Below, piece by piece: positions 22,375 through 57,769 of a DNA stretch of 64,000 nt. The first letter of the stretch is position 1, and the number at the start of each line of letters is the position of its first letter. The stretch is from Amphiscolops sp. MND2022. Taxonomy: Eukaryota. The notes beneath the pieces are model-generated. The model had not been told where the DNA came from. It did not search any database and saw only the letters and a program-made list of their open reading frames with translations. The DNA lies in the NCBI GenBank assembly GCA_964187785.1, contig OZ076409.1, positions 4,838,001-4,902,000 of the forward strand. The letters are read 5' to 3'. The position numbers were made by a program, and so were the translations under genes.

Positions 22375-22457
22375 AAATCTATCTTTAGTATTTCTAGATA
22401 TTATTCCGTGGTTTTAGATTTTTATAATTTAGGATTGTCTTTTATCGTTCAGCAGTT

Positions 22458-22732
22458 AGTAGTAATTGAATTCCCGTTCCCGATATATAAGAAAAAATTT
22501 AAGTTCGTAAAATTATCAAACTTTAGCCTTTTTTCAAGGCAAATCATCAAAAACTAGCCTTTTTTCACAACTAAAAAATTACCCGTTATTGATATATAAG
22601 AAAGATTTAAGCTCGTAAAATCATTAAAAAATTAATCTTTTTTCACAAAATACCAATCAAACCATCTAAAAATTAGCCTTTTTTCGCAACTAAAAATTTA
22701 ACAAAATAAAAATCAATGAACAAATTTTTCCA
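22458..22732 (+). repeat. Polinton left terminal inverted repeat
   Basis: Reverse complement of 35877-36151 with about 5 mismatches; contains internal sub-repeats (cccgtt..gatatataagaaa.atttaag.tcgtaaaat x2; agccttttttc x3). Confidence 0.95.
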
Positions 22733-22780
22733 ATGGAAAATTCATTGACCAAGATCTAATCATGGAAAAACAACTATTAA

Positions 22781-23173
22781 ATGAATTATTTATCATTCAA
22801 AGAATTTGTTAATAAACATGGATTAAAAATTGAAGCAACTTCTAATGTAAAAAAAGAAATACTTAATGAATTAAATATTCCGTGTGGAATATACATGAGA
22901 GATGATAAGTTTAACACTACCAGTGGTATAGTTAACTTACATCCCTCAGTGGGAACACACTGGGTTATGTTAACAAATCAAAACTATTTCGATTCAAATG
23001 GCTGTCCACCACCACTAAATAAAACAAAACAAATTAATAATGGCATCTATTCAGAATATCAAATCCAGAAAGACGACAGTTATTGTGCAGCTTATTGTTT
23101 GTATGTGTTGTATCTCACAAATATAATTGGCTTCAAAAATGCAGTTTTAAATTTATACTACCAAAATTTATAA
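22781..23173 (+). CDS. Polinton adenain-like cysteine (maturation) protease
   Basis: Catalytic motifs GTHWV, YFDSNG, QIQ..DSYCAAYC (His-Asp-Gln-Cys arrangement). Confidence 0.9.
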   Translation: MNYLSFKEFVNKHGLKIEATSNVKKEILNELNIPCGIYMRDDKFNTTSGIVNLHPSVGTHWVMLTNQNYFDSNGCPPPLNKTKQINNGIYSEYQIQKDDSYCAAYCLYVLYLTNIIGFKNAVLNLYYQNL

Positions 23174-23180
23174 TTCCTAA

Positions 23181-23363
23181 ATGAAGAAAATTAATAATTA
23201 TTCAGCTCAATTTAAAGTTATTCAAAAGCCAGAGAATGAAAATAATAATAAAATTCATAAGCAAAGCTCATTCGGTAATAATTCAAAAAAGAAATTATCA
23301 AAACAAAACCAAGAATTTATAAATAAGATATCCGCAAGTGGATTTAAACAAATTTTCTCCTAA
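23181..23363 (+). CDS. Polinton small basic hypothetical protein (60 aa)
   Basis: Tightly packed between protease and minor capsid gene; starts in the same TAAATG context as its neighbours. Confidence 0.5.
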   Translation: MKKINNYSAQFKVIQKPENENNNKIHKQSSFGNNSKKKLSKQNQEFINKISASGFKQIFS

Positions 23364-23366
23364 TAA

Positions 23367-24413
23367 ATGGATCTATCAAACTTTATAACCTATGATAAAA
23401 AAGAATCTCTTTTATTGAGTATTGCAAAATCTAATTTGGATATTGTTGAAAATACCTAATCCAAACCTCAGAAAACTCTAGAATTTAAAATGAATAAACC
23501 AAAAGAATCTTTTTCATTTGATATTCCTTTGGAATTGCCTGAACAATGGATGATGGGAGTAACAAGTTTAGAAGTATAAAATACAGTTTATAACATTACT
23601 GAGAAGAACAATAAATTTAAATTTCTTTATACAGAAAAAATGTTAAAAGAAAATGATGTTGACACTCAATTAGTAACAAATGTTGAGTATTTATATAAAA
23701 CCTCTGGTGATATAGAAAAAATTAAAAAACTTATAGTTAATGATAATGCTAAAATTAAGACTATTACTAAAACAGATTATGATTATTTGATGAAAATAAT
23801 TGATCAACTTAATCAGAATACCGAAGGTGCTTTGCACATTAAAGATAAACCAATTGTTATTTCTGGAATTGGATCTGTAACTGATTCCATTGAAATAGAA
23901 CTACCACCAGGAGCATATGAATTAGTTGATATAAATAATACCATCCAGCAAGAACTTATTAAATGTTATACTTTGCCTGGTGGTAGTTCTGACTTTAAAC
24001 TCAACATAGAAGCAGATACAATATCAATGAAATCAGTTTTAACAACTGCTAGTGGTATATATTTTAATTCAGAATTAAATAAACTTTTAGGGTTTACAAA
24101 CAAGGAATATCCAGCAGGAACTCATATATCAGAAAAACCAGTTATGATAACAACTACAGACAAAGTTCATCTTAAATGTGACTGTGTAGATGGTTCAATT
24201 GTTAATGGGATTAAAGAACAAATTTTATTTTCATTTAATCTTAGTGCTCCTATCGGATATAAAATTATAAAAGAACCCAATATTATTTTGTATAAAAAAA
24301 TAAACAAAACAAGGTTAGATAGTATTCAATTTTTCCTTGAGGATAACAATCATAACCCAGTTGATTTCAACGGGGAGACATTAACATTTACAATTCAAAT
24401 CAATAAGATTTAA
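23367..24413 (+). pseudogene. Polinton minor capsid (penton-like) protein with two in-frame stops
   Basis: Frame from ATG 23367 continues into the 23640-24413 ORF through TAA at 23457 and 23577; motifs FSFDIPLELPEQWMMGVTSLEV, DKVHLKCDCVDGSIVNG, PVDFNGETLTFTIQI typical of Polinton/adintovirus minor capsid proteins. Confidence 0.75.
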
Positions 24414-24422
24414 TATATATAA

Positions 24423-24841
24423 ATGAGCTTTAGTAAATTTAAAAATAATTCATATTGTGTTGGTGGAAAACATTATTCCACTACCAAAAATATTCGTGGA
24501 GATATTACTCAAAATAAAAAAAACAGGAGCACCTGTTAAATTATTAAGAGGTACTTGTTCAACTTGTAAAAGAAATATATCATTAATTGTATCAGATCAA
24601 ACAATTCAAGCAGAAGGATTGGGTAATTTTTTTAAACATTTGGGCTCGGCAGCCAAGAATGTCGGAAAGAATACTCAATAATCCTGGAAGAGCATTAGAG
24701 CTAGCAGCTAATATTGGTACAGCTGCAGCAAGTAAAAATCCAAAACTTATTGCCGCAACTGCTCCTGATATTATAAAATTTGTTCATCAAGAAAAAGGTC
24801 TGTACTTGGGTAAAATTTATTGTTTTACAGCCTTGCTGTAA
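24423..24841 (+). pseudogene. Polinton protein with Zn-ribbon-like N-terminus and amphipathic helix (putative membrane-active virion core protein); two frameshifts
   Basis: Reconstructed MSFSKFKNNSYCVGGKHYS...RGTCSTCKRNIS...QAEGLGNFFKHLGSAAKNVGK/ILNNPGRALELAANIGTAAASKNP; frameshifts near 24520 (A-run) and 24668. Confidence 0.6.
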
Positions 24842-24872
24842 ATTAAAAATTATTTTTTATGAATAACAAATT

Positions 24873-25808
24873 ATGTATTCAATTCATAATCGAGATGATT
24901 TAGAAAAATTAAAAAAAAATTGCAAGAATCAAAATCTTCTTTGAAAGCTGAAAGATTAAAAGAGAACCTAGGGAAGCAAGACTTTCATTATGATATGGAA
25001 GAAGTTTTTGAACCTGTTACTGAAAACCAGAAACAAAACCAAACTAAACAACAAGAACTTTCTGAAAAGCAAATACAAGCGCTACGTGATTCTACTCAAA
25101 CTACAACACAAGCAATCGAAAATCAGACAAGAGCAATAGAACACAGTAGTGATATTTTAAATAAAAATTTACAAAAATCTATCAAAGATGCTAATTCTAA
25201 CCAAGTAGACAGTTCAATTGTTAAAACAGTTTCCAACCTCCTCAACACCCAAAGTCAATTCAGATTAGAACCTGTGGAAGGTAATCCAAATTTATTCATT
25301 ATTAATCCTTTTACTAATCCACAACAAGTATTAATCAAAGGTTCAACAATGACTTTCGAGAATGGTAACACGTACAATTTAAATGATCCAGATCTTTCAT
25401 ATTTTATAACCTATACACAGCTTGATAAAGAAATACAAAACGAGAATCTAATTTATAATTTTTTAAAAGATATGAAATATGATCTAAATTATGGAGATAA
25501 AAAATCAAGTAGATATAATATAATTAAGCATTTATTTCAACCCCAATTAGGAAGTGGAATAAATTTTACTCGGGCTACTAACCCGAGCAAATCTTTGATT
25601 TGTGTCTTCCTTCCATCTGATCCAGATGAACTTGTAGATCAATTAAAACTACTTTATTTTGAAAAAGTAGGAGGAAATGATAACCCTATGCGTTAATGAA
25701 CAAATTATAGCAATTGCAGATAAATTATTACAGTACCAATGCATTACAACAAATCAACATCAAAACCTAGTAAGCACATTTACTAAAAAGGATCAGATTG
25801 TGGATTAA
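24873..25808 (+). pseudogene. Polinton hypothetical protein (coiled-coil N-terminus, FLPSDPDELV..L C-terminus); frameshifted at both ends
   Basis: ORF 24920-25696 extends upstream (MYSIHNRDDLEKLKK) and downstream (NEQIIAIADKLLQYQCIT) by single frameshifts. Confidence 0.6.
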
Positions 25809-26754
25809 ATATCTGGTATTGCAGATTGGATTCATTACATATCATATACTTACTCCCATTTTTATCTTCTAATCTATTTATTAATAAATAGTTATACCTC
25901 TCCCGCCATGCTTCCTTTCACAAACTTTTAAATTCATCATAAGACTTATCAAAACCAGCTATGTCGGTGTATATATGTTGCACATCTTTCAATGTTTGTT
26001 GAAATAAAATTATAATATTACTTTTGTTTCTAATTGTTCTTTTAGGCAAATCAAAGTATGACTGTGATAAATAATAAACATCCAGATCATTATGTCTTCC
26101 CCTAGTAAAAAATGGATCTATTAATTTCTGTGAAGTGTCCAACATATCATCAAATACAACACAACAATTTTGAAAATCTTGAATACTTTTGTCTTCTAGA
26201 TCTTCGTCCACTGAAACATCTTCTATTTCAATTTTATTGTATTGTTCCGGACTCCTCGTAATGATACATATCTTTTGTTCAGGATTATCTAAGCGAATTA
26301 ATTGTAATTTGTTTAATAACAAATGGGTCTTACCACAAAATGATGGGGCAACTATCAATGTCCTATTACAATTATTATCAATTTGATTATTATTATCATC
26401 AATTTGAGTATTATGATTTTCATTATCATCATCAATTTGATTATTGTCAATTTGATTATTATCATCATCAATTTGATTTTCATTATCATCATCAATTTGA
26501 TTATTATATACATCTTCTAATAATTTAATACATCTTTTCAAATGTTTTGATAAATATGTTATATTGAATTCCTTATTACAAAATTCACACATCAATTTTT
26601 TATTGAAACATTCTATAGATGTACTATACAATTTACCATTTTTATATTTGTAAAAATCTGTTTTCAATATATTACATTCTTTACATCTTTTTTTATTCTC
26701 ACAATCGGAGCAGACAGATTTTTCATTACTTTTTCCACAAATTATACACTTCAT
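25783..26754 (-). pseudogene. Polinton packaging ATPase 1 (A32/FtsK-like) with N-terminal Cys-rich region and NQIDDD repeats; premature TGA
   Basis: Walker A APSFCGKT, Walker B VVFDD, FFTRGRH..LSQSYF..IR motifs; frame continues past TGA at 25918-25920 (KEAWRERYNYLLIN...) to TAG at 25783. Confidence 0.88.
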
Positions 26755-26948
26755 TTATTTAGTAAAAAATCACTAAGAGCACTAAGCAAACTCACTAAGA
26801 GCATGATGTTTTAAGTGTAACCATATTTGCTTAGTGACAAAAAATGCTCTTAGTGAATTTGCTTAGTGATTTTACTAAGAAAATTACTAAGAAATCAGAT
26901 CCCTTATTTTTAATAATTTATATATTATTTAATTATATTTAACTATAT

Positions 26949-27957
26949 TTAATTACTTTTACTAAACCTGATTGCTTGATCAATTATAATTTTCTTAAAT
27001 TCATCTTTAAGTTGATCTGAAAATAATGGTTGTTGCATGCGTTCAACGTAGTTGTCTATTTTAGATTCATTCACTTTTATTTTATTTTGTTTACAATAAT
27101 ATACATAATAATAAGCTACATTAAAAGGTGTTATTTCAATTGTTTGATCTGACATATCTTCTAGGAATATTTTAAGTTTATTATATTCTTCACCTGTAAA
27201 GAAATAACTTTCATATTTTACATAATCTTCAGGACTCCATTTATGTTTAGTTGTATCGTATTAGTTGGTACTTTCGATTGAGTATTTTTTGCTTTTGTGA
27301 TCTAGTATCAAATTCAATTACACCAAATTCTAACTGACTACGATATTGTTTCCATTTGAGATCTTCTTTGATTGAATAAGTTTGTATTATGGTTTCAAAG
27401 AAACTATCTGGACTATTTATTGTGATATAAAATTTAAAACAATTCTCTCTCACTATTGGGAGAACATCCTTTGCATAGTGAGCAAGGTATATAACTTGTA
27501 TTTTATTGTGTCTACCAAACCGAAATAAGTCTTCTACTTTTGTTTTAAGTTGCTTATAAGCACCCGCATCGTCTAAAATTATCGTTTTATTCGCAAGTGA
27601 TTCAATTTCTATTTTTTCTAACTGCAACAAAGGTATATAATTATCATCAAACTCAGTCTCATCTCTACCGAATACTATAAAATTTGTTTTAGTTTGATCT
27701 AAATAATACTTAAGGAAACTAGTCTTACCTGATCCACTAGTACCATAAATTAACATATGGCAATTTGTATTTGTATTTGGTGGAGTAAGTTCTTGTTCTT
27801 CTTCTTTGTTAGTTAAATGAGAATATTTAAATCCCTTGAATTGTTTTAGTTTTTGGTATAATTTTTTATAATAATTAGGTTTAATATAATACCAATAAAT
27901 ATATAAAACTATAATAAAAATTACACATAATAAACCAATATATAATTTTTAATTCAT
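26949..27957 (-). pseudogene. Polinton packaging-type ATPase 2 with hydrophobic N-terminus; several lesions
   Basis: Core ORF 27247-27756: GTSGSGKT, ILDDAG, FRFGRH..VIYLAHY; upstream TAAATG start at 27957 followed by LYIGLLCVIFIIVLYIYW; 26949-27155 is probably a frameshifted C-terminus. Confidence 0.75.
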
Positions 27958-27971
27958 TTATTAAGAAATAA

Positions 27972-28829
27972 ATGAGTGAAAAGAAGAAAGAAATTGCTAA
28001 AGAAATATTTTCTCCTGTAATTAAAAAGTTTGATCGCATTAAAATAATTCCTCATTATAAAGATGAGTGTTGGAGTATTGATTTGATAGACAGATCTAGC
28101 TTATCAAAATATAATAAGAACTACAAGTTTATTTTTACAATAATTGATAACCATACCAAATATGCATGGGCGATTCCTCTTAAAGATAAATCAGGAAAAA
28201 GTACAACTGCTGCATTCAAGAATTTTTTGGAAACTAGTAAAAGAAAACCACCCAAAATATGGAGTGATAGAGGTAAAGAATTTTATAACAAAATATTTTT
28301 ACACTATTTAAAGGAGCAGAACATTCAAATTTATTCAACTAATTCAGATTTGAAGGCTGTTTTCGTTGAACGATTCAATAGAACACTTTTAGACTTAATT
28401 AAAGAACCCATGTATATTGAAGGTAAAGCTTGTTGGTTGAATCACATTAATAATGCTTCGGATAAGTATAATAATCGTGTTCATGGAACAACAAAAATGA
28501 CACCATTTGAAACGGTTACCAATACTAATAAAATTAATAAAATTAAAATTAATAAAAATGAAAAAATACCCAAATTTCAAGTGGGAGACTATGTAAGAGT
28601 TCCTGACAAAAGGAACATTTATTCAAAAGGTTATACAACAAATTGGAATAGAGAACTTTTCAAAATACACAAAATTAATCCAACTAACCCAGTTACGTAT
28701 GGTTTAGTAGATGAAAACAACGAACGAATAGAAGGAAAATATTATGAACAAGAACTTTTAAGTGTATTCATTTTTAAATCTAACAACAAAACGTTAGAAA
28801 GTATGAATATTTTCCATCGTTATGAGTAA
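27972..28829 (+). CDS. Polinton retroviral-like (rve) integrase
   Basis: DDE triad WSIDLID / SDRGKEF / VERFNRTL; FQVGDYVR..KGYTTNW C-terminal module; uninterrupted 285 aa; no obvious chromodomain. Confidence 0.95.
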   Translation: MSEKKKEIAKEIFSPVIKKFDRIKIIPHYKDECWSIDLIDRSSLSKYNKNYKFIFTIIDNHTKYAWAIPLKDKSGKSTTAAFKNFLETSKRKPPKIWSDRGKEFYNKIFLHYLKEQNIQIYSTNSDLKAVFVERFNRTLLDLIKEPMYIEGKACWLNHINNASDKYNNRVHGTTKMTPFETVTNTNKINKIKINKNEKIPKFQVGDYVRVPDKRNIYSKGYTTNWNRELFKIHKINPTNPVTYGLVDENNERIEGKYYEQELLSVFIFKSNNKTLESMNIFHRYE

Positions 28830-28843
28830 TTATATTTAAATAA

Positions 28844-29551
28844 ATAATATCAATTCATAAATTTGGTTATAGTGCCGAGAGCCTACAAAAAGATAAAATT
28901 GAGAATCTTGAAAAAGAATTGGAATCACAAACCAAATTATTTAATATAAAACTTATTGATATGCAAAGCACTATAAATGGTATGACTGATAACCTACAAA
29001 GTGTACAAGAAATTAATTTTGATGATGGTGAAACCAAGGTAGTAGTCAATGCAAAGTTATTCTTAGACATAAATAAAAATATAGAAGACTTGAAAATCAA
29101 CCTGAAATACTTAGAACAAGATGTTAAAACTAAATTTTTAGAAAAGAAAAAAGAAATAATTTTTGATGCTGCCAAGTTAGTGGAAGAACGACAAACCATT
29201 TTACGTAATCATTTTGAGAGAAACCTTATTTCAGAATTGGAAAAATGTAAAAATCAAACAGTCAAAGATACCATTCAATTACTATACAACAAAGGATTGT
29301 TTGATTCATTTGAAAATAAAGACCAAATCTTTAATGAGTACTTATATTTTAGTGATGAATACTTGTTGGAAAAATACGGAAAAGAAATAAAGACATCAGA
29401 TGGTGTGTATTATTTATCTGATTTAAATTATTCTACGAGAGAAGATATAGTGTATTCCTTAAAAATAGATGAATACAAAGATATAATTGACCTTAAATAT
29501 AGAATGAAACTAACCGATTTTGAGATAAATTTCATACTTTTTGAAAACTAA
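28844..29551 (+). CDS. Polinton hypothetical coiled-coil protein (start codon apparently mutated, TAAATA)
   Basis: Frame open from ATA at 28844 into the 28919-29551 ORF. Confidence 0.55.
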   Translation: MISIHKFGYSAESLQKDKIENLEKELESQTKLFNIKLIDMQSTINGMTDNLQSVQEINFDDGETKVVVNAKLFLDINKNIEDLKINLKYLEQDVKTKFLEKKKEIIFDAAKLVEERQTILRNHFERNLISELEKCKNQTVKDTIQLLYNKGLFDSFENKDQIFNEYLYFSDEYLLEKYGKEIKTSDGVYYLSDLNYSTREDIVYSLKIDEYKDIIDLKYRMKLTDFEINFILFEN

Positions 29552-29582
29552 TTTGTAAAATTAAGTTTTTATTTAAAATTGA

Positions 29583-30098
29583 ATGAGTGAAAAATTGTAT
29601 CCTTGTTTACGTGAATCAGATCTTGATCTTAGATTGAAAGAAATAAATAGTTTTAATAATTCAATTCAAAGTAAAAAAGATATTCAAAATTTTTATAATC
29701 ATGAAGCTAAAAAATATAAAAAAATCTAAAATAGACAAGCTTATAAATTGTTTATTCAATCTATTGATGGAGTGTCGGTGTTGGGTGTATCATCAACATG
29801 TGCCACGTTAAGTGTCACAGGAGTTGGACTTGTTGTTGTACCTATAGCAAGTGGTATAGGTGCAGGTTTATGTATATTTAGTAAAATTGCTGGAGAGTAC
29901 CTGAAAAGAAAAGAACAACACAATATTAAAAAGTATACTCTTGCTGGTAGAACACTAAATGATTTCTGTAAACTACATTCAAAATGTTTAGAAGACAATA
30001 AAACTGATCTGAATGAATACAACAAATTAAAACAAACTTACGATGTGTATAAAAACAATAAAACTAAACTAAAATCTGAGTTTACTTTTTTAGGATAA
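29583..30098 (+). pseudogene. Polinton putative membrane protein with Gly-rich hydrophobic hairpin; frameshift near 29720-29730
   Basis: MSEKLYPCLRESDLDLRLKEIN... joined to SIDGVSVLGVSSTCATLSVTGVGLVVVPIASGIGAGLCIFSK. Confidence 0.6.
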
Positions 30099-30159
30099 AT
30101 TTTTTGAGTAAAAATAAAATCAGTATAAAATTTAAATCCTAATTTTTATTCCTATTTAA

Positions 30160-31389
30160 GTGGAAATATTTTCATTGAAAAATAAATATGCTATGGATAA
30201 ACCTATTCGTAAAATTAATTTTATTAAATTTAGTCCAAGTAGTTTAGCTACAATCAACAATAATAATTCAAATATTTCCATCATCTTCCCAAGAGAAGAT
30301 GCATATATTTGTTTACAAATCTCATACATATCATTAGAATTTGAAGTTCTTAAAAATGATGATACAAGATTTGCAGATGGTGATCAAATAAGCTTGGTTA
30401 ACTTTGGACCTGTTGCTTTATTTAGTGAAGCTAAGTTAACTACTAGTTCGGGCAAGCAATTAGAAAAAGTTGATAATCTACACCCAATTTCATTGATGTA
30501 TAAACTTTTAACATCTAATCAACAAACAAGTCAATTGATGTATGGGTTTGAAGAATCACAAGCAACTAGAAGACAAGAACTAACAAATAATGAAACAGAG
30601 AAAGGAACCTTTTTTGTTAGAATAAAACTAAAAGACTTGTTTGGATTTGCTGATCAAGAAAAAATAACTTATGGATTGGGTTATAATCTAATGTTAAAAC
30701 GTACTAATAATAATGATAGTATCATCAGGGACAACGGTGTGGATGCTGCAAAAATAAATATAAAAGACATCTCCTGGTACATTCCACACTACATACCATC
30801 AATGGAAAACCAACAACTCGTGATGGATCAAATATTAGACAAAGATCCAACTGAAATATATTACGTGGAACGGATTGTATTTAGAAAAGATGTTAACACG
30901 AATAATAATTGGACATTTGAATTAGGTAGCAGTGGAGAATCTACACCAAGTTTTATAATTGTTGGATTTCAAGCTAGAAATAAAGTTGATTCACAAACAC
31001 ATAATAATGCAACATTTGATCGTTTACCTATTTCAAATGCTGTTTGTAAAATAGGATCAGAAAAATATCCCGATGATGGAATAGAATGTAATTATGATAG
31101 AGACAAATATGATCAAGCATACAGTGAAATTGAAAACTTCTATTTGTTAAAAAGTGAAACTAATCTACTCAATCCGTTTATTGATTTGCATAAATTCAGG
31201 ACAAATTATAATTTTTATGTATTTGATTTATCCAAACAAAAAGATAATATTGCGAGTCAACCAATCCGTTTAGAATTTAAACTTAGTGCTGCCATTAATG
31301 TAGCAGATTATATAGCTTATGCCTTAGTCCTAACACCTAAACTGATAAGTATCAGTAGTGATGGACAAAGGCATTTTGATTTATTATAA
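30160..31389 (+). CDS. Polinton major capsid protein (double jelly-roll, hexon-like); start codon is GTG
   Basis: 409-aa open frame; motifs WYIPHYIPS, PSFIIVGFQ, FDRLPISNAVCKIGSEKYP, FYVFDLSKQ, IRLEFKL resemble Polinton/adintovirus MCPs; size and position fit. Confidence 0.85.
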   Translation: MEIFSLKNKYAMDKPIRKINFIKFSPSSLATINNNNSNISIIFPREDAYICLQISYISLEFEVLKNDDTRFADGDQISLVNFGPVALFSEAKLTTSSGKQLEKVDNLHPISLMYKLLTSNQQTSQLMYGFEESQATRRQELTNNETEKGTFFVRIKLKDLFGFADQEKITYGLGYNLMLKRTNNNDSIIRDNGVDAAKINIKDISWYIPHYIPSMENQQLVMDQILDKDPTEIYYVERIVFRKDVNTNNNWTFELGSSGESTPSFIIVGFQARNKVDSQTHNNATFDRLPISNAVCKIGSEKYPDDGIECNYDRDKYDQAYSEIENFYLLKSETNLLNPFIDLHKFRTNYNFYVFDLSKQKDNIASQPIRLEFKLSAAINVADYIAYALVLTPKLISISSDGQRHFDLL

Positions 31390-31514
31390 GCAAAGCTTTT
31401 TCAGTAAATAAATATAATTTAAATATATTTATACAGCTTTGCTGATATGTTAAAAAAATTTATAAAATAATATAGTTATTTTTATAAAATGATAATATAA
31501 TAATATATTTATTT

Positions 31515-34500
31515 TTATAAAACAAGTGCTCGATCACTTATCAACTTCACAAGTTGTTGATGGGTGAGTGCTTGTTTCCAATACCAAACACTCCAATATA
31601 TTTCTTCATCTGTTTTCTTGTTACCGTCAACATTTATAGTTAATTCTTTATAATACAAACCAATTAATTTCAAACAATATATACATGGACAATCACCTTG
31701 TTGTGTGTGTTTATCCCATGGTAAACTTTGTATTGGATTTATATACAAACGTTCATCGTCAAAAGGATTCAAACACAACTTAGGTTGTTTTTCAACAGTA
31801 AGGTTGTGTAAACTAGATCTAATTGATATATTTGTAGAACTTGATGTTTCTGAATTAAACAATGAATTTTTGTAGTGTTCACATTTGGGAGCTTTTTGTA
31901 TTCCTTTTTGTTTCGCTTTTTGAATATTATTGTAACTAAAAGAATATGACTTTGATCGCAATGCTGTGAAGGTATCTAACACCAAAACTGGACTTGTTTC
32001 AATTTTCATTTTTCCTATACCTTTCTTGTTAATAGGATTATATAATTCATGCGATTTATCCAATTCACTGAAATCAAATTCATCTTTATTTTGTTGTAAA
32101 AAGTTTATTAGTTCTTGGTGGCTTGTATCAAAACTCAGAATAAAACTATGAGTATCCATGTAGTGTAGTTGTATGGATTGTTTCCAATATGGTTGTAATT
32201 TGTTATAATAAAATTCATACATTAGTAACTTACTTAATTCTAAAACTGTAAAACCTAAATAAATTGGTTTATCAAAGACTGTTTTTTCTTTATCAAACTT
32301 GTCTTGTACACACTAAATTTAGAATAATGATCCATGATTCCTTTGAAACTTAACTTGGATTGTCTTTTCATTATTTGATCTATTTGAGAATGATCAATGA
32401 ATTCTAGATTGGTTCTATCTCGTACCTTTTCCATAGTCTTGCCGAAGAAAGCATTGTTCATTAATTTATAAAGATCCTTTTCAAAGTTTGTTTTCGCTAC
32501 TGTGCGTTTCTGAGTATTATGATCGATATATTTACCTAACCATGGACTTTGTTTAAACTTATAGATAGTATGTATCTTCGTTACTTTCATCCCTTGGTTA
32601 AGATAAAACTTAAACATCCTATAATGTATCTTATATATCGATTTATTGGTTACATCACACATAAGTTTTGGGGTTGGTTTGTAATTAGGTTGATTTACAT
32701 TATTCATATAAGCTGAGAATAAGTCTGGATCTGCTTTTGTTTGATACGGACAAAAAGGAAAGTTTTTTGTTTTTTCTTTATTTTCAGCTGGATATTCTAA
32801 ATCACATTCGATAAAGAATCCATATTCATTATCATCATGTATTTGTAATAAATCTTCTACTAATTGCTCTAGATTGTAATTATCTGTGTAATTACACGGA
32901 TTAGGAGGTAATATTCCGAATTCGCCAGTGGGAAGGTGTTGACGCATTGCCCATCCATATAGATTATTTGCATCGATATATAAGATTTGTTTATTTTCAT
33001 CAGATTGCACGTGACGATCTCCCATTACACTTGAAATTCCTCCACGGATATTATTTAAAAGTAGTAGTAATAATTCTTTACCGGAGGGCAGCTTCGCTGT
33101 ATCTTTTATAAAGTCTAACTTTATATTAGTCAACTTCAAACCTGCTTTCCATGTATAACCAGGTAGTGAATAGGAGTATAAAGGATTAATTTTATATTCT
33201 CATGTAGAACTTTCCACAAAGTTTTCGAATACATCAGTTAATTGAAGAACATCCATTTTTAAATATAACATTGTTAATTCTCTTCCATTTTTAATTTTAT
33301 TTTTATCAATTAATTCTTGGGTTCTTTTTATATCATCATCTGATGGATAAGATTGTGTTAATGTTGACCAATATTCTTCTTCGGTTAGATTTAATGGTTC
33401 CTGAAAGTTATCAAGATTTAAGTATTCATATGGATAAGCTAATTTCTTTTTGAATAAATCATCACTCATTCCTTCCAATTTCATGATAGGAAAATTGTCT
33501 AAACTCTTAACTAACTTATCTAAACTGGAAGAAAGAAATTGGTATGAATCTAAAAATCTCAAACAACCTACTTGTACACTAACATAATTTTCCAGTGATT
33601 TTGGAATTATCGTTGGATTATAATTTTGATTGTATGCTTCGGTTAGGAGTTCTTCAAATATAAGATGACAATCATACCCCGAAAAGTTGTGGAAAAATAT
33701 AGGAATAAAACTTGATGACCTTTGTTTACAATTTATGTTACATATATTATGAGCTGCTCCTCTGTATTTTCCTGTTAGATGATCATGATCTCTAACTTTT
33801 TCACCACCGAGTGGATTTTCACAAAGCCAACACTCTTCTGCTTGTTCAAATTGTACTTCTTCTTGACTCATTTCTAATTCTAAATTTGTTTTAAAATAGT
33901 TATTAGCAATTTTTTCTAAAGTTAACATTCTATTTACAAACCACTTGGTACAATCTGTTCCAAAGTATGAATAGTAATAATTTCCGAATGGTGAAATTAC
34001 ATAATATCCTACTGCAATTGGAATTTGTTTGAATAACACGTTGGGGGTTTTTTGAGGTTGATTGATACATTCAAAATCTGCATATACTCTTATTGGTACA
34101 GGAACTTTCATATGATAATCTTCGAACTTTAACTGATCCTTCCAACTGAATGTGATTTTAGTTGGTTGTTGATTTATACATCTTTCCATATGATCAATAA
34201 GAATTGGTTGTGAACTAAATGCTGTTAAACATCTCCTACACACCCATCGCATGTGTGAATCTTTATTTATTAAACAATGTAGCTTTGTTATTAAACAATA
34301 GTGATTTTGATATAATAATAATTCTATTTGTGGTTGTAAGTAATTTTTGTTAACGTGGATTGGTGTTAGCACATTTCCTGTGAGTTCGAATACATTTATA
34401 CACAGTCCAATATTTAAATTTTCAAACTTGGGAATATCTTTGACTTTCATAGGGAATTCTAAACCTTCTAGGTTGAATTTATCAAAATGTTTTGAATAAC

Positions 34501-35310
34501 TCGATGTTATAATTTTATTATTCTCAACTGGAAATAAATATGCTAATATACACCATAGAAATTAAAATTGATCATTATTTTTTATATTTATTATTGATTG
34601 GCTGTTTTTATATTTTGGTGGTAACTCAATATATGAAGATGCTTGAATATCATTAACTTTATATATTTCTAAAATAACTTCTTCTATTTCTTGAAATTGA
34701 AAACCTGATCCTTCTAATTGTTCATCATCTAATTTTTGCATTAATGTGTTATGAGTATCTTGTTGTGTATGATTATATATTAGATCTGATTTTATCCATC
34801 TTTCAAATACTTCTTCTTCTCCATTGACTATTTTTGAAAATTTAGCTAGATAACTCAATTGATATTTAAATCGAGGAAAGTACCTTTTACTTATTAATTC
34901 ATTTATACGATTTTCAAGATTTTCAGTTGGATTTATTTTCAGTTTAATGTATGTATTTTCATTCACAATTATATTTACTCCATTACCGGAGGGCAGCAAA
35001 GCTGTACCGAAATCTGTAATTCAGCTTCGCTGGCTTTGCATACCGTTTTGTTGACGGTTTTGTAAATGAATTTCACTTTGGAAATGTCTTGTTGTATCAG
35101 ATATATATTTACTACAATCTTCACACCATATTTTATTGATGCAGTTTTTATGTTCATCTGAATTTAAATGAGAACTTTTATCTGAGGCATATATAAATTA
35201 CATTTTTTACAATAATATTGATTTAATTTTCCAAGATGTTTTACTGATTTTAGATGATCAGACTTGAAAGCTTTTTTATAATTTAAATTACAAATACTAC
35301 AATTCTCCAT
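31515..35310 (-). pseudogene. Protein-primed family B DNA polymerase (pPolB), fragmented
   Basis: N-terminal Zn fingers (MENCSICNLNYKK..H), ExoI YADFE, RDHDHLTGKYRGAAHNICN insert, ExoII HNFSGYD, YIDANNLYGWAM, KLMNNAFFGKT, catalytic YMDTHS (D to H); stops at 34562 and 33200, 5-bp duplication frameshift near 32300. Confidence 0.95.
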
Positions 35311-35876
35311 TTCTATTTAATAAAGAAAAAATAGTTTAATTAAAATTTTTTCAATATGTCTTTTGTTTAAAAAAATGGAATTTTTATATTTTTCTCACCT
35401 GTGGGTTCAAGATGAAAAAATTTGTCAGGAACAAAAGTTGTTCATATTTTGGGTTTCTCCAATTTTAGTTACTGACTTTTCACGGTAGGATCAACCAGTC
35501 TTGAGTAAAATGAGAAAAACCCAATTTTCACACCTGTTTCATCACCTGGTAATCAGTGGGTCCAAGATACTGAAAAATTTTCTTCTTGTAAAATGTTTGT
35601 CTCGTTTTTGTCTATAACTTTGATTTCCTGAGTCGGTATAGTAGGAAGACCCAGTTTCGAGAAAATTGAGAAAAACCCATTTTTCACACCTGTTGGGCAG
35701 GTGGTAATCAGTGGGTTGATTTTAGAGATAAGCCGCAGATACAAAATGTGTGTACCTTTAGATTGTCTACAACTTTCATTTTCAATGTTTTTCTCAAAAA
35801 TGATTTCCCGTTGAGATATTGAACAATTTAACTTTTCCCATGTATTAAGATTAGGAATAAAAAATTTCTATATATA

Positions 35877-36151
35877 TGGAAACATTTGTTCAATGATTTT
35901 TATTTTGTTAAATTTTTAGTTGCGAAAAAAGGCTAATTTTTAGATGGTTTGATTGGTATTTTGTGAAAAAAGATTAATTTTTTAATGATTTTACGAGCTT
36001 AAATTTTTCTTATATATCAGGAACGGGTAATTTTTTAGTTGTGAAAAAAGGCTAGTTTTTGATGATTTGCCTTGAAAAAAGGCTAAAGTTTGATAATTTT
36101 ACGAACTTAAATTTTTTCTTATATATCGGGAACGGGAATTCAATTACTACT
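35877..36151 (-). repeat. Polinton right terminal inverted repeat
   Basis: Matches left TIR; ends ...caattactact followed by TSD gcagtt. Confidence 0.95.
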
Positions 36152-36833
36152 GCAGTTGTCGGTAAAAAAAACATTGGTGAAAAAAACAAAGTAATGGCCC
36201 AAGTCATAATGAAGTAAAGGTGTTCATAATTTCAACGTGTAATGTCTAGAAGTGTCTGTGCAGTCATACTTGAGACCATAATCTTCACTTCTGGATTCCA
36301 AAGACAAGAGAGCTGGTTTACATTAGTACTAATCTCCGATAGATCTGCGAAGTTTTTCTTGACAAATTCCGATTTTTCATTCTCTTGATTTCCATGCTCG
36401 ATCCAAGCGGGAAACATGCATGGACTATGCGATTCTATGCAAAAACGGCATGCCCAAAGGCATGGAACATGCGAGTGGCAACGTGGTAATGTCCTTTCAA
36501 TATTTTCTGACTAAAAACAACAATTCTTGGTAAATTTCATCTCTTTGTTGATTTCAAGCACGAACAGAAGGTAAATGATTTGTCTACACTGCGCTCCAAA
36601 TTATCAGGCAAGTTTCAAATTTCCAGGAAGTACACCCACCAAGTTTCAACTGAGAACTTTAACTATATTAGCGTTTTTCTGAGCTCCAACAAAGACATAT
36701 TCTTGATTATAAGTACCTAATACTATACAGATGCTACAAAACAGTCGAAAATCTAATTTTCGAGCGTTTTAATCCTTAGGCAAATTCCATAAAATCAACA
36801 AAAACTTTACTTTAACGAGTTTAAATTTGACTT

Positions 36834-40044: not shown

Positions 40045-40456
40045 TGAGCTGTTAAAAAGTTTGGTGGTTGTTTCTTTTATACGAGTTAGAACTGACATAA
40101 GAAGTCTAAGATTTTAACAGCAGAGTCGTCTTATCTTTTATCTTATAGCTAGCTAGTTCAGAGTACAATCTATTTCTGAGATCTCAGTTCTTGAAGTGCT
40201 GGAAGAAGACTGATTGCTAGGAAGAATTCTCAATTTCTCCGAGTAGATATATTCTATTAACTAGGGTAGGTTACATCAATTAATATTGTGACAGCAACAG
40301 GATGAAGCAGGGAAGTTTGATACAGGATCTATTAAATGAAGTTTCTTCTAGAATAATTAGTTTCTAGATTCAATTAGATTTACTAATTTCTTCTGTTAAG
40401 AGTTCAGAGTATTTCAGATTTATAAAATCTTTGAGGACATGCATCATGGCATCACA
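40045..40456 (-). repeat. 3' LTR
   Basis: 412 bp; TGTGAT...AGCTCA on the element strand. Confidence 0.97.
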
Positions 40457-41633
40457 ATCAACCGGGAATTTAAAAATAAAAATTATATATATGCACTTTT
40501 GAGTTTGAGGAGTTCAAGAAGTTTTTGTTATGTGCATGGGTTTGTTTCATATGTGTTGTATTACAGTTGCATGAGTTTCGTTTTGTAGAGTACCATACTT
40601 AAGGAGTGAGAACAACCTAAGACGATTTGACTTCTTACGTCATAGACGATTCAATTGGTGCAAAAAGGTTCAAACAGGTTCAAGTTCTTTCAGTTTCTTT
40701 GACTGACAAGTTCTTTGAAGTTATTGTTGACAACTATTTATTCTTTCATGTTTCTTTATCGTACGTATCAGCTTTATTCTTTCATGTTTCTTTTTCGTAC
40801 GTATCAGCCATCGGCTTGTTGAAAAAGTTTGTTTCATCAACATGAGTTAGTCAGCATTGAAAACTTTTTAAGTTGAAGAATTAAAGCGTGGAGTTGTCAA
40901 TGAGTTGTGAACCAACATTGGCGGGTATGTGAACCAAAAGTGAAGAAAATTTGAAAAGTCAAGGTTGAAGTGAGAGTTCATTTTCACCAAAAGTGAAGAG
41001 TAGAGCAGAAGCAAGAGTTGAAAAAAAACTTTGGCTATTCCAAGTTTCAAACATTTGAAAACTAGAAGTGACATTTTTCACAAGTGACAATTTTCAAGAG
41101 TTCGAAAGAAAATTTTGGAAAATTTTTTGGGAATGCTTTCGAGGGTTAAAGGAAAGTTGTAGAAAATGTTTTGTAAAAGAAAAATTTTTGTCCAAAAATC
41201 TTAGAAAATTTCATGTGCTGTAAGTAGGACTTGTGTTCTGTAAAAAGACGGGGATTAAAATGTATTTTGGAGTGGATAATTATGTAAGATAATGTTAAAG
41301 TTCTATACACAATACAATGGAAGTAAATAATATTGTGGTTACAAGAATAATTATGGGTAGAATTTGGGAAGGATTATGGTTAATGGGGGGTAATTATACA
41401 ATGGTTAGATAAGATTAGGATTAAATAAGATTATATAGCGCTAAAGATTAGATAGGAATATATATCACTAGTATACTACGATTAGATAAGATTATATAGC
41501 ACTAAAAATTAGATAGGAGTATATAGCACTAGTCTATATTAAAGTTATGATTTGATTAAAATAGGTTACAGGTTATATTGGTTATAAATGATTATACAGT
41601 TCAGTTTGAAATTTGTATTGGCCATTGGAGTAT

Positions 41634-41817
41634 GAAGACCAGTTCACGAAGTCAGCAGTTGAGGTGTGAAGAAGACCAGTTCACAAAGTCAGCAGTTGAG
41701 GTGTGAAGAAGACCAGTTCACAAAGTCAGCAGTTGAGGTGTGAAGAAGACCAGTTCACGAAGTCAGCATTGGAGGATGAAGACCAGTCACGAAGTCAGCA
41801 TTTGAAGTGTGAAGACC
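41634..41817. repeat. 37-bp tandem repeat (about 5 copies) in the retroelement 3' region
   Basis: Unit gaagaccagttcacaaagtcagcagttgaggtgtgaa at 41634, 41671, 41708, 41745, then degenerate copies; no spacers. Confidence 0.9.
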
Positions 41818-42037
41818 GATGACGAGGACAATTTTTGGCAACGTCGATGAACCCAAAGTGTAGATGGATGTTGTTGACCATCGTGGGTGGGTGAAGTGAA
41901 GAGTTTCAGCATGTGTAGGAGTTCTTGGAAGTAATCATCAACCACATTTCGAAGCATCATCGAAAGAAGATGAAGAATTTGGAAACGAAATGTAGTCAAA
42001 GAAAGAAATAGAAGTAAGTAGAAGTTTGTGTTAGAGA

Positions 42038-42490
42038 TTATTGAAAGAGAGAGTTTTGCGATGGAGGATGAGGTTGGTGTTGGATCGGGTCATAAAGTTC
42101 TAGTTGTTGAGTATACCCGAAATCTTTCAGCATATTATTAAAAGCATCTGTAGCTTCTTGGATAGCAGTACGAAAGTACTGATCCTTTGACGTAAAGGAC
42201 GAATTGAGGACGAAAACAACATTAGATGCCGTTTCACAAATGGCAATTTTAGGTCCTTGAAGATGGATTCGCGAATATTGCTCGAAAGTGATTTTCTTTT
42301 TCTTTATTTGCGTGACATTGTAGAGTACTTTTAAGAAAGCGATGAGACATTTTGGCGTAATTTTGTTTTTGTGAATCTCAAGCGAGAGTTTGAAGGCCAT
42401 GGTATGATATATGGCGGCTTTAAGACTATGCACTTTCGAAAATTCTGAAGTCATTGTTAGAATGTCGTTTGTTTCAGCATTTGGAGCCAT
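42038..42490 (-). CDS. Retroelement accessory ORF C (150 aa)
   Basis: Sense ORF with ATG in ataATGg context; no recognisable motif. Confidence 0.55.
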   Translation of the reverse strand: MAPNAETNDILTMTSEFSKVHSLKAAIYHTMAFKLSLEIHKNKITPKCLIAFLKVLYNVTQIKKKKITFEQYSRIHLQGPKIAICETASNVVFVLNSSFTSKDQYFRTAIQEATDAFNNMLKDFGYTQQLELYDPIQHQPHPPSQNSLFQ

Positions 42491-42899
42491 TATGACGAGA
42501 GTTTGAAGAATACGAAGAAAGAGAGGTTGGGATGTTCTGAAAGAATTTGGATGAAGGAGAAGGAAGAATGGATGTTTCTAAAACAAAGGAAGTGTGAGAA
42601 GAAAGACAATATCAAGTCAAAGATGTACAACAAAAATGGGTGCTATAATGTGCCACATGTAGTATTATTTTAGATTGTCTTGTATGTCTTGTATTGTAGT
42701 GTTTAAAATAAAAAATAGTTAGTTTTTGGCATGTACTGTAGGAGAAATTAGTGTACTTAAAAAACAGTCCTGAGATTTCATTCAAAAGTAAAGATTTTTG
42801 TTAAATAAAAATGAAAATACCTTGTAGAATGTGCCACAGATGTACCAAAGAATGTATCAGAGAAGAAAATTTAAAACTTTATATTACCTGTAGAGAAGT

Positions 42900-43532
42900 T
42901 TAATGAAGATTAGTTGAATTAAAAAGAGTAGTTAAAGTTTCCAAAGCAGATTGAATTGCTTGGGATGATTGAGTGATGCGTTGAGAATCTAAATCGAGTG
43001 TCTGAAGGAGTTTGTGTGTTCTGTCATAACAGTGTAGTATATGTGTGAGTGTTGTGATAGGTGTTTCAGAGGAGTTTCGTTTATAGGGTTCCAGTAAATT
43101 TGTTATGTCTCGAAGTGTTCGATTGTTTAATACAGAGGAAAGTTTGTCATGAGTGTTTTTGATGGGCGAAGTGTGTGATTTATGTTCAGTTTTTTGTTCA
43201 GCTTGTACCATGAAAGAGATAGTTTTGGCAGATATAAAGAGAAGTTCATTGTAGGAATACGTTTGTTTGTAGAGTGCTGTATAGTATGTTCTATCTTTAT
43301 CGTCAAGTGGAGAAGAAACGAGGTGTTTAATAACAGTAAGAGGTTTTGCAATTTGAGTAGGGATGTTGCAAGGCAACAAAAAATCATCGTAATGTATGAG
43401 ATATTCTTGAGGTACAATAAGTGGACGTGAAGTATTGTTATATGGAAGCAAACAGAAGTATTGCTTTATAGGGTCATAGTTCCGAAGATAGCCTGTTATA
43501 CAGGAGTGATCGAGAGTGTACATATTTGTCAT
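42900..43532 (-). CDS. Retroelement accessory ORF B (210 aa)
   Basis: Sense ORF, ATG overlapping the TGA of ORF A; no recognisable motif. Confidence 0.6.
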   Translation of the reverse strand: MTNMYTLDHSCITGYLRNYDPIKQYFCLLPYNNTSRPLIVPQEYLIHYDDFLLPCNIPTQIAKPLTVIKHLVSSPLDDKDRTYYTALYKQTYSYNELLFISAKTISFMVQAEQKTEHKSHTSPIKNTHDKLSSVLNNRTLRDITNLLEPYKRNSSETPITTLTHILHCYDRTHKLLQTLDLDSQRITQSSQAIQSALETLTTLFNSTNLH

Positions 43533-44245
43533 TGTGAACGGTGATGTATATTTGTAATTGACAAAAATATAATTTTGTGGTTTGTGTAGTGTAGAAATTT
43601 AGTATATGTCTGATGATGAGAAGCTTTTTGTGCTATAGAGAGAAAGGATGGATCAGATTCATCCGTTTTGAGATCGTATATAGAAGGTCTAAGAAAATTG
43701 AATTGGAGAGAGAAAATTTTAACTCCATTCTCGAGCCAATATTGGTATGGACCCATTATTTTGGAAGCAATGGATGTGAAGAAGTCTTGATTTTTGTCAT
43801 ATAAGCGAAATGAGTAGTCAGTAGGATGCATATATAGAGAAGTTAGTTGTGCTTTGAAGACGAAATCGTCAGTGGAAAGAATTGAGATCAAATGATCATC
43901 GCGATTCGTGCAAAGTGAAATTTTTGAAGGTATTGAAGGAGGATATATTGGTGATGAAAGAAAGATTGGATCTTTCATTATTTCATATCGCTTTTTTGGA
44001 GGAGGTGGTGTCGATTGTGTATGATCAGTATCGTCTTGTGGAGGAGTAGGTTTTGGTTTTTCATTTTCAACTTTTGTGTGTTCCATTGGTTCAAGAAAAG
44101 TTGGAGGTGTTTTTTCAGAAGTATCAATATAGAGAACAGGAGAATCATTTGAAAGAGGTCTTGTTATAAGATCTGTTGGGGTTGCTTGTTCAAGCTGTGT
44201 TTGTAGGTCAATTTGTGCTTGTGTCATTGTTTGAGAAAGCATCAA
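43529..44245 (-). CDS. Retroelement accessory ORF A (238 aa, Pro-rich N-terminus, PPKKR NLS-like)
   Basis: Sense to gag-pol, downstream of env; its stop overlaps the next start (ATGA). Confidence 0.6.
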   Translation of the reverse strand: MMLSQTMTQAQIDLQTQLEQATPTDLITRPLSNDSPVLYIDTSEKTPPTFLEPMEHTKVENEKPKPTPPQDDTDHTQSTPPPPKKRYEIMKDPIFLSSPIYPPSIPSKISLCTNRDDHLISILSTDDFVFKAQLTSLYMHPTDYSFRLYDKNQDFFTSIASKIMGPYQYWLENGVKIFSLQFNFLRPSIYDLKTDESDPSFLSIAQKASHHQTYTKFLHYTNHKIIFLSITNIHHRSQ

Positions 44246-44491
44246 CAGTCACAGTGTTATCTATTCCAAGAGGCCTTAGCACTTTAAAGTTAAAGTACTA
44301 TAAATTACACTAACGAGTGGATTTGTCAACTTTAGTTGAAGAGTTTTTGAAGATGGTTATTATGAGAGAAGTATTATTGGACTGAGGAAGATGAATTTCT
44401 GCAAGAGTTTCAAGTGGTGGAGGAGTAGCAATTGTGAAGAAATAACAGGCGAGTGTTCTGGAAGAGAGTTACAGAAGAACTGAGAGAGAGT

Positions 44492-47239: not shown

Positions 47240-48398
47240 TATGTACTACTTCAAAAGGAGCAGGAGAGGTTTGATGTTCTATTTTAGAAACGTGAAATAT
47301 TGGATGAGGATTTAATCCTTGAAATTTGACTTTGACTTCGAATTTAAGTTCTAAATTTGGTGTCTGAAGACGTTTTAGTTCTGTTTCTTTACGTTTATGA
47401 GATAAGAGATCGTTGTTATTAATGAAACGTTCTGCAAGAATTGGAAATCGAGGATCGTTTTGTGGGTCGTAGATAGTTATACCATCGACTCGAAGTGGGT
47501 AATCAGCAAAATTTGGGGTTGGAGGTCTAGAATGTTCTGCAGTATAGTATTCAGGTAGTCTAATATGTGCAGGAACAGGAGTAGGGATTACTACTTTTGA
47601 AAAAAGATCTCCTGATAGGAATGCAGTTTGTGGGTTAGATGAGAGTAATGAAGCGGTTTCAAAACCAGAAGTAAAATAAGGAGATTGAAAGAGTTCTGAA
47701 GATGATGGGTCAGAGGACAATGGTTGAGCGTGTTGTCTTACAAGTCGTAATGCAGAATTGCTAGAAAGAGCGGAAAAATTGAGTGTGGAAGTGTCTGTAC
47801 TAAGTCTACGTGAAGGAAGGTCACGAAGATGATATCTATGTCTAGGTACAAAAAATGAGCTTGTGTCTTGTGATGGAGCGTAGTCAGAAGTATTATTGTC
47901 TAAGAGATTTGAGAGTGATGTAGAGGGTTTTCGAAGATGTTTTAATGGTGGATAAAGTTTTGAAGAAGTAGTGCTAAGTTCTGTAGTGCTAAGTTCTGAA
48001 GGTAATTTTAGTGGAGGTAGTTTCGTATATTCAGTATCAGGAATTTGTACTAGATTAAGTTGAGGTTGGAGTCTAACAGTTTTGATAGCTGTAGGGTGTT
48101 TGTATGTTACGTATTGTTCAACACTTTCAGGGTTTGGTATGTGTATAATAGGAGTGTTAATAGGAGTTTGTTGGGGACGAGTGTTTATAGGAATTTCGGT
48201 TATAGGTGGTCTGTGAAGAAGTGAAGAAGAAGTGGTTTCAGAGATGTATGATCTGGGTCTTTTAGAAGGAGTAGTAGGAGTTACATTACTAGAGTTTGTA
48301 GTGTTTGATACTGAAGATTCAGGTGTAGAAGGAATACTTGGAGCTGATGGAGAGATATCAGAGGGAGGATCCAGGATTGTTGAAGTGTTTTCAACAGG
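47142..48398 (-). CDS. Ser/Thr/Pro-rich open frame between pol and env (419 codons; start apparently damaged)
   Basis: Manual translation shows the 47142-47720 frame is stop-free up to 48398; contains PSAP (48339-48350) and LYPPL (47943-47957). Confidence 0.7.
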   Translation of the reverse strand, partial: PVENTSTILDPPSDISPSAPSIPSTPESSVSNTTNSSNVTPTTPSKRPRSYISETTSSSLLHRPPITEIPINTRPQQTPINTPIIHIPNPESVEQYVTYKHPTAIKTVRLQPQLNLVQIPDTEYTKLPPLKLPSELSTTELSTTSSKLYPPLKHLRKPSTSLSNLLDNNTSDYAPSQDTSSFFVPRHRYHLRDLPSRRLSTDTSTLNFSALSSNSALRLVRQHAQPLSSDPSSSELFQSPYFTSGFETASLLSSNPQTAFLSGDLFSKVVIPTPVPAHIRLPEYYTAEHSRPPTPNFADYPLRVDGITIYDPQNDPRFPILAERFINNNDLLSHKRKETELKRLQTPNLELKFEVKVKFQGLNPHPIFHVSKIEHQTSPAPFEVVHIEFERDLKIPTITYGNIVFCNPYSGLKYKTSF

Positions 48399-48499
48399 TT
48401 ATCTTTAAGATAACTTGTTATGGGTTTTATTTCATTTATTCAACATTCATTCAACCGGAGTGACTAGGTTTGAGTAAGCCAACAGATAGAATGACTAGA

Positions 48500-56929: not shown

Positions 56930-56948
56930 AGAAGGAAAAAGTTGTACT

Positions 56949-57071
56949 TTAAAATTTTGGTATAAATGAAATTAAAAATTTGTCTAGAAAAAGTGCAAGA
57001 CCGGCAACGATAGCAACAAAGAACCAAAAGCAGACAATGAGTTTGACTACAATGTCTACTGAAGGCGGCAT
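56949..57071 (-). CDS. 40-aa hydrophobic upstream ORF in the retroelement leader
   Basis: MPPSVDIVVKLIVCFWFFVAIVAGLALFLDKFLISFIPKF*; single transmembrane-like stretch; below the ORF-track cut-off. Confidence 0.4.
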   Translation of the reverse strand: MPPSVDIVVKLIVCFWFFVAIVAGLALFLDKFLISFIPKF

Positions 57072-57749
57072 GTACAATAAAGTTCTATAAGAGTGTGTCA
57101 AAGAAGTTGTACAAAAATTTGTTGTATGTAGGTGTATGAAAAATGAAAGTAATGTAAAGAGAGGTGTGATATATGTGTTATATATCTTAATTGTTATGTA
57201 TTTGGATCCGTAAGAGAGTTTTAAAGGAGTTTTGTATGTGGTTTGTAGTATAGAAGAGAGAATAAGAAAAGTATTATAATTATGTTATGTAAAAAGATGT
57301 GTTATATAGGTGTGCCAACTTTAAAGTTGATCCAAGCGGCTAGAACCAAAGAGATTTTTACTAGCAGGAATCGCTGGATAGCACTGTAGAAGGGCCAACA
57401 CGTATCGCACGTCTGCGGTTGGAACGAAAGAAAGATAGAAGAAAAAAGCCAACACGAATTCACGCAGAGGTGGTTGGAACGAAAAATTTAATTGACAGGA
57501 ATTACGTGAAGAAACGTAGTCAGAACCAAGAAGTATGACTGACAGGAATTACGTTGATGAACGCAGTCAGAACCATAGCAACACGGATCAATTTCAAGTA
57601 GAAATTGGTTGCAACGTTGAAGTTAATAACGGTATGCAATATTGAGAGGTGGAGAGACTGTGTGTCGAACAAAGAGATATCGAATGAGAAAGTTGAGGAA
57701 AGGTGTACAACAATTGTAGATGTGTGAAATAAATGGGAGAGAAAGAAGA

Positions 57750-57767: not shown

Positions 57768-57769
57768 AT

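Follow-up and report, generated by a model that had tools for sequence, protein, structure and literature searches.

The 64,000-nt window analyzed here (contig OZ076409.1 of Amphiscolops sp. MND2022, positions 4,838,001 to 4,902,000 of the forward strand; coordinates below count from its first base) contains an integrated Polinton of 13.7 kb (22458 to 36151), in which most genes begin in or near the word TAAAT(G) with a TT at a fixed distance upstream. The element is framed by terminal inverted repeats (TIRs) of 275 nt, the left one on the plus strand (22458 to 22732) and 98% complementary to the right arm on the minus strand (35877 to 36151), and by plus-strand copies of the target duplication GCAGTT on both sides (22452 to 22457 and 36152 to 36157). 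Polinton target duplications are 6 bp long. Inward-facing TATATAAG boxes were found twice in the left TIR, at 22484 and 22593, and the GC content of the element is 24 to 30%, below that of its flanks. Besides TIRs and a 6-bp target duplication, we detected an rve integrase, a family B DNA polymerase, a double-jelly-roll capsid, an A32 ATPase, and a protease, the last recognized solely by similarity to an open reading frame (ORF) of the related locus L009 (no PDB sequence match). The capsid matched profile PF21738 alone, and its best fetched relatives were Polinton-type loci. It gave 1,613 family hits, the best 120 of which were all from ENA with 80 to 93% identity. By every feature tested the element is a Polinton, a decayed member of a large family, with several of its 12 genes broken by stops or frameshifts.

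The plus-strand genes of the left arm are a protease-like gene starting in TAAATG (22778 to 23173; E = 2e-7 to the L009 ORF, which matches Peptidase_C5), a 60-aa ORF without Pfam match (23167 to 23363), a probable minor capsid gene broken near its 5' end (23353 to 24413; presumably the penton, E = 8e-18 to the L051 ORF at the matching place), and a frameshifted, putatively core-like small gene without Pfam match (24409 to 24841), the last three each starting in TT-N9-TAAATG. A broken coiled-coil gene (24873 to 25808, plus strand) follows and starts in CAAATT|ATG. Two A32-like ATPases lie on the minus strand, both under TT-N9-TAAATG: one has an N-terminal zinc-finger region (25918 to 26768; E = 3e-21 to the L051 A32 ATPase), and the other is broken and has a hydrophobic N terminus (26949 to 27971; Pox_A32, PF04665, E = 2e-8). 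Diverging from the latter on the plus strand is the retroviral-type integrase (27958 to 28829; rve, E = 3e-10; TT-N9-TAAATG). It is followed on the same strand by a mostly helical 234-aa ORF (28830 to 29551; TT-N9-TAAATA), a broken, probably membrane-active virion gene, so named for its hydrophobic segment (29569 to 30098; TT-N9-TGAATG; E = 4e-4 to an L009 ORF), and the double-jelly-roll major capsid gene (30146 to 31389; TT-N9-TAAGTG; PF21738, E = 2e-22), with a hairpin after its stop. The polymerase gene, polB (31515 to 35330, minus strand; TT-N9-TAAATA, ATG at 35310), is in several pieces that match 14 viral loci, with 30 to 41% identity to the polymerases of related loci; Pfam labels only an endonuclease VII part. 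As in the divergent Beta class of Polintons in the Polintoviricetes literature, the polymerase gave no PF03175 match, and the element would presumably belong to that class; in a polymerase tree it stood on a long unresolved branch. The 234-aa ORF was considered as a transcription factor, which found no support in Pfam, the Atlas, or a low-confidence structural model (pLDDT 50).

An earlier sequence-only reading of this DNA had proposed that 11 of the 12 genes start in TAAATG or a one-mismatch version of it, with hardly any space between genes. All seven exact words that it listed are present (22781, 23181, 23367, 24423, and 27972, and on the minus strand 26754 and 27957), and intergenic gaps measured 3 to 17 nt at five neighboring gene pairs. 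Its words TGAATG at 29583 and TAAGTG at 30160 were likewise recovered and are the two one-mismatch starts of our tally. Two other positions had to be corrected. The 234-aa ORF had been started at 28844; in 118 of 120 sister proteins the first residue is the next one, which corresponds to 28847, a position without a start codon in this copy. For polB, a mismatched GAAATG at 35310 had been named; the gene instead has an exact TAAAT (35319 to 35315) 9 nt upstream of its ATG. After these corrections, exact TAAAT lay within 12 nt of the start in 9 of 12 genes and a one-mismatch word in two; the twelfth start, 24873, has no such word and is where 84 of 119 sister proteins of the coiled-coil gene begin with MYSI. 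The capsid start at 30160 was matched by 33 of 160 sister proteins of at least 390 aa, most of the others either coming from a second subfamily or having their start placed at a Met 11 codons further down.

Across the window, TAAATG occurred 78 times against 82 expected, i.e., without general enrichment; its enrichment is confined to gene starts. The element contains 453 ATGs, 25 of them preceded by TAA (a rate of 4.1% once the starts are removed), and 7 of 12 starts at this rate corresponds to p of about 1e-7. When element DNA was shuffled, TAA|ATG was found at 63 of 768 first ATGs after a stop (8.2%), and p for 7 of 13 at such a rate was still 3e-5.

In vaccinia late promoters, TAAAT(G) spans the start codon, and a T is conserved ten bases ahead of it (PMC11980589; here and below, statements on published systems follow the available portions of the cited sources). 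We tested this position after its description in that review. T was found at -10 in 10 of the 11 anchored starts, and T at -11 in the same 10, compared to TT at 0 of 18 non-start TAAATG sites of the element (Fisher p = 5e-7). With the exact starts only, TT was present at 6 of 7 (Fisher p = 4e-5), and with the divergent pair excluded at 4 of 5 (p = 6e-4). When the upstream 25-mers were rotated, an equal column appeared at any offset in 1.5e-5 of trials. The complete signal, TT-N9-TAAATG, occurs six times in the element, each time at a start. In exact or variant form, the two-part motif heads both structural and replication genes: capsid, ATPases, integrase, and polB. Since the upstream T also lies at the published distance, the likeness to poxvirus late promoters is stronger than the sequence-only reading had claimed; its phrase "identical to" the poxvirus initiator is better put as "matches the consensus of."

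The second A32-like ATPase and the integrase diverge from starts only 14 bp apart and share an interlocked promoter pair (27955 to 27974). Its inverted TAAATG words are 8 bp apart, so that the complement of each AAA falls on the -11/-10 position of the other and each initiator supplies its neighbor's TT. Overlapping bidirectional promoters also occur in poxviruses (PMC3185747). The exact spacer of the pair was absent from the viral contigs scanned. When inverted initiator pairs were sought more widely, most matches were due to chance; ORFs of 70 codons lay on both sides in 1 of 120, at a different spacing.

For comparison, scans with the polymerase yielded 70 loci. Leaving out three near-duplicates, 40 of them offered three or more usable ORFs; starts there were taken as the first ATG of a long ORF, and only some were checked against homologues. 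Start contexts in these loci are AT words that abut the ATG and are lineage specific, and 113 of 315 starts carry TAAA within the last 10 nt. With duplicates removed, 61 of 111 anchored starts had T at -10 (p = 2e-4), a stronger signal than at any other of the 13 offsets. The loci bearing the signal were L023 (9 of 10), L017 (9 of 11), L051 (7 of 8), and L003 (7 of 10). The five best capsid matches among the fetched loci were L003, L017, L051, L068, and L009, and pooling the closest-capsid loci L003, L009, L017, and L051 gave 29 of 41. The two-part architecture is common, in looser form, to part of the group, and strict TAA|ATG is mainly a feature of this element and of L051 and L068. The latter two (on contigs G001:C8 and G002:C2) are nearly intact Polintons inside bacterial genome bins, and L068 continues into a microsatellite-rich, eukaryote-like flank. 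In L002, L004, L007, and L008, TATATA-type words precede the starts instead; we take these to resemble mimivirus late promoters. Scans of viral contigs with the capsid and the integrase returned no relative, and the capsid had no match among phages. A metagenome scan for relatives gave just one fragment (L015), 1.3 kb long, in which a capsid C terminus of this family is fused to unrelated-looking pieces and which includes no gene start.

Taken together, TT-N9-TAAAT(G) probably acts as a promoter, gene by gene. As to which polymerase reads it, no Pfam match to an RNA polymerase, capping enzyme, transcription factor, TBP, or late factor was found in 34 frames of the element. We infer a promoter of the poxvirus late type, for which a large DNA virus infecting the same cell would supply the RNA polymerase, and give this reading a probability of roughly one-half; it is the best single explanation, unproven as it stands. 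Transcription would begin within the AAA, where slippage, as known from vaccinia biochemistry, would add a nontemplated 5' A leader. The message would then be almost leaderless, with the template T at -3 outside it. With only 3 to 17 nt separating five gene pairs, a start site in the word itself would be the simplest arrangement. If virophages are a guide, an element whose polB and integrase stand under the same signal as the capsid genes would remain silent until the helper's late machinery is present; genomes and virions would then be made, followed by integration elsewhere. Suitable helpers would be a poxvirus, one of its relatives, or a different large DNA virus whose initiator is TAAA. 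The helper need not be a poxvirus, and its family is left open because TAAAT and AAAAT words are also found near the starts of iridovirus genes (PMC5294985). In vaccinia, TAAA is recognized directly by the core polymerase (PMC12917281). AATAAA is not avoided on the coding strands of the element (41 against 42.4 expected from synonymous shuffles) or of L051 (21 against 21.8), as expected without nuclear 3' processing; the coding strands of L023 are depleted (5 against 10.6). Depletion of TTTTTNT on coding strands (5 against 11.9) was rejected as a further poxvirus-like sign, because long runs of A and of T are scarce overall, both in this element and in the majority of 17 other loci. TTTTTNT is the poxvirus early terminator.

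Several observations weigh against helper transcription or against the signal itself. The shorter form TT-N9-TAAAT, with no G, is found at 37 places in the element, just 8 of them starts; the motif has little information, and the word alone therefore defines no promoter. TT also precedes 9 of 20 noncoding TAAAT sites away from starts, six of them mirrored TIR copies (Fisher p = 0.02 against the 10 of 11 starts), and 6 of 19 AT-rich sites outside the element (Fisher p = 0.002). The protease gene is the sole anchored start without TT, and the start at 24873 is without TAAAT. Some capsid calls of the sister subfamily read through upstream of the Met, so that no stop abuts it. Among the relatives, the signal is uneven: of 11 loci with four or more anchored starts, just 4 had p below 0.05 (L003, L017, L023, and L051), L009 had T at -10 in 6 of 12 (not significant), L030 and L037 had none, and among additional anchored genes of the L051 contig the count was 1 of 3. 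Exact TAA|ATG is uncommon in relatives (18 of 111 anchored starts). A helper-gene search of the two bins that hold L051 and L068 found no match to VLTF3 or TBP. The long terminal repeat (LTR) retroelement of the window, used as positive control for AATAAA avoidance, showed a weak effect (13 against 18.3, p = 0.065). Finally, a family as numerous as this one would be more simply explained by autonomous spread, canonical TATA boxes lie inside both TIRs, and transcripts of an adintovirus have been found in fish tissues, the available text making no mention of a helper (PMC8502044).

The last three points also favor the foremost alternative, that host RNA polymerase II reads the two-part signal in the nucleus and makes nearly leaderless messages with host factors or a factor of another Polinton, the likeness to poxviruses being due to shared promoter ancestry. 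We regard this as unlikely, though a serious contender. In its favor, related yeast linear elements use a TAAAN initiator, which shows the word to be old in the group, although those elements have their own polymerase (PMC6211774), and AATAAA or ATTAAA lies within 40 nt after 7 of 12 gene ends, such words being frequent in AT-rich DNA. These have to be set against the 44 AATAAA words that the 12 gene spans contain on their sense strands (polB has 12 of these), with no depletion, and against the lack of any TBP-like Pfam match in the element or in 51 ORFs from six related loci, among which no polymerase or late-factor match was found either. Moreover, a TATA-like word abutting the ATG cannot be the polymerase II TATA box of that gene, which requires a spacing of 25 to 30 nt (PMC5294985). 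Zinc-ribbon ORFs next to polB in two related loci (L037:9668-10192 and L030:3363-3833), which by eye look VLTF3- or TFIIB-like, gave no such Pfam match.

A feature of translation or gene packing, in which a stop just before the ATG insulates reading frames or helps reinitiation on polycistronic messages from TIR promoters, is improbable. The short gaps, the TAA in frame with the ATG, and the TIR TATA boxes would suit it. In no case, however, does the TAA terminate the preceding gene; the word stands before the two divergent genes and the first gene on each arm as well, and neither the TT at a fixed distance nor the TAAAT 9 nt before the polB ATG is explained. It is very unlikely that the word instead serves the preceding gene as a poly(A) signal that runs into the following start codon: AATAAA or ATTAAA does overlap 7 of 12 starts, but four of them (those of the protease, polB, and the divergent pair) lack an immediate same-strand neighbor upstream, no such hexamer is present at 23181, 24423, 29583, and 30160, and the TT is again left without a role. 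Ordinary AT-rich Kozak context, or chance, for which the low GC content and the commonness of the hexamer in the window speak, is likewise very unlikely. A Kozak reading founders on the -3 base: 9 of 12 starts have T there, in contrast to the A that 185 of 315 starts have in related loci. The start enrichment (p from 1e-7 to 3e-5) also counts against it, as does TAA|ATG at 0 of 6 first-ATG contexts of the LTR element, a weak control in which several are not true starts.

The element can be compared with several known systems. Vaccinia and mpox late promoters resemble its signal in three ways: TAAAT plus a G or A lies at the start codon or immediately ahead of it, a T-rich tract has its T ten bases further upstream, and divergent promoters overlap (PMC11980589, PMC5294985, PMC12917281). 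Unlike there, the signal here stands in an integrated element of 13.7 kb with no detected polymerase or late factor, and also heads replication genes. Mavirus and the endogenous EMALE virophages of Cafeteria are likewise integrating, capsid-coding elements with an rve integrase, a family B polymerase, and a motif shared between genes (PMC10945749). They differ from the element in that its capsid is of Polinton type (PF21738), its motif is pox-like rather than the TCTA motif of CroV, and its host is presumably an animal; it would work like mavirus only if helper dependence holds. In endogenous virophages, a promoter match to the helper predicts which copies wake (PMC10945749; bioRxiv 10.1101/2025.10.09.676808 and 10.64898/2026.07.28.741278). 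Polinton-like viruses (PLVs) found in entomopoxvirus occlusion bodies have been proposed as poxvirus parasites in animals; they too are small Polinton relatives in animals, but their capsids are highly diverged and they come from occlusion bodies (PMC11296320). Adintovirus DNA is packaged in baculovirus-infected insect cells (PMC8502044), and poxvirus relatives donated genes to parabasalid Polintons (bioRxiv 10.1101/2024.03.23.586382). The yeast virus-like elements pGKL1/2 share linear DNA, a TAAAN initiator, at which slippage gives 5' A leaders, and stem-loops at 3' ends. They differ in encoding their own RNA polymerase and capping enzyme and in having a conserved upstream sequence related to the poxvirus early promoter, none of which was detected in the Polinton (PMC6211774). 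Gene set, TIRs, and target duplication are those of Polintons, Mavericks, and adintoviruses (PMC8502044; bioRxiv 10.64898/2026.06.19.733378).

Further features of the window were noted. Each TIR has three outward-facing TT-N9-TAAAT copies (22501, 22609, and 22700 on the minus strand; 35909, 36000, and 36108 on the plus strand), with two inward TATA boxes opposite. Poxvirus telomere resolution sites include an outward late promoter. The palindrome CAGC-N3-GCTG was found five times (24828, 31434, 33089, 34994, and 35022), always in the Polinton, against 0.13 expected. Two copies are in gene-end hairpins, including the one at the end of the core-like gene (24828), and two in polB have the common flank ACCGGAGGG; the polB copy at 33080 inserts 7 residues that are absent in 10 to 11 of 11 aligned relatives. 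The palindrome is possibly a tiny mobile repeat. A general rule of hairpins at gene ends was not supported (z below -2.5 at just 2 of 12 ends). Eight of the 17 CTAAG/CTTAG words of the element cluster, partly inverted, at 26771 to 26891, just upstream of the start of the zinc-finger ATPase, a possible self-binding or packaging site. The 530 nt between polB and the right TIR (35335 to 35870) contain internal repeats and gave no convincing Pfam match in nine frames. Outside the Polinton, the 18-kb LTR retroelement on the minus strand (40045 to 58069), to which the strong GC skew of the window is due, has identical 300-nt LTRs, gag, a pol frame of 1,761 codons, a Monjiviricetes-type fusion glycoprotein (PF24664, E = 1e-22), and several extra ORFs without Pfam match.

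In the literature searched, which included few subscription papers and excluded preprint supplements, we found no report of a TAAAT(G) late-type promoter in a Polinton. The word "promoter" does not appear in the texts of PMC8502044 and bioRxiv 10.64898/2026.06.19.733378. PMC11296320 has neither "promoter" nor "TAAAT" in its main text, and its supplement, also without "promoter," has two incidental TAAATG strings; a term search of PMC11161782 gave nothing on transcription. A Maverick-Polinton virion has so far not been observed (bioRxiv 10.64898/2026.06.19.733378). At stake is the nature of animal Polintons (satellites, transposons, or autonomous viruses), which the two-part promoter makes testable: 5' ends with nontemplated A's at TAAAT would show a viral polymerase reading the element. 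A wider proposal, that one capsid lineage of animal Polintons consists of provirophages of poxvirus-like viruses, with each gene behind the helper's late promoter and the start word of each Polinton lineage marking the helper family, is tentative. If host RNA polymerase II reads the signal, it would be a leaderless promoter of an unusual kind, and one that hints at how the late promoter of poxviruses arose. If a helper virus reads it, virophage-like parasitism, and perhaps defense, would reach beyond protists into animals, and the promoters of Polintons could serve as pointers to undiscovered large DNA viruses of their hosts.

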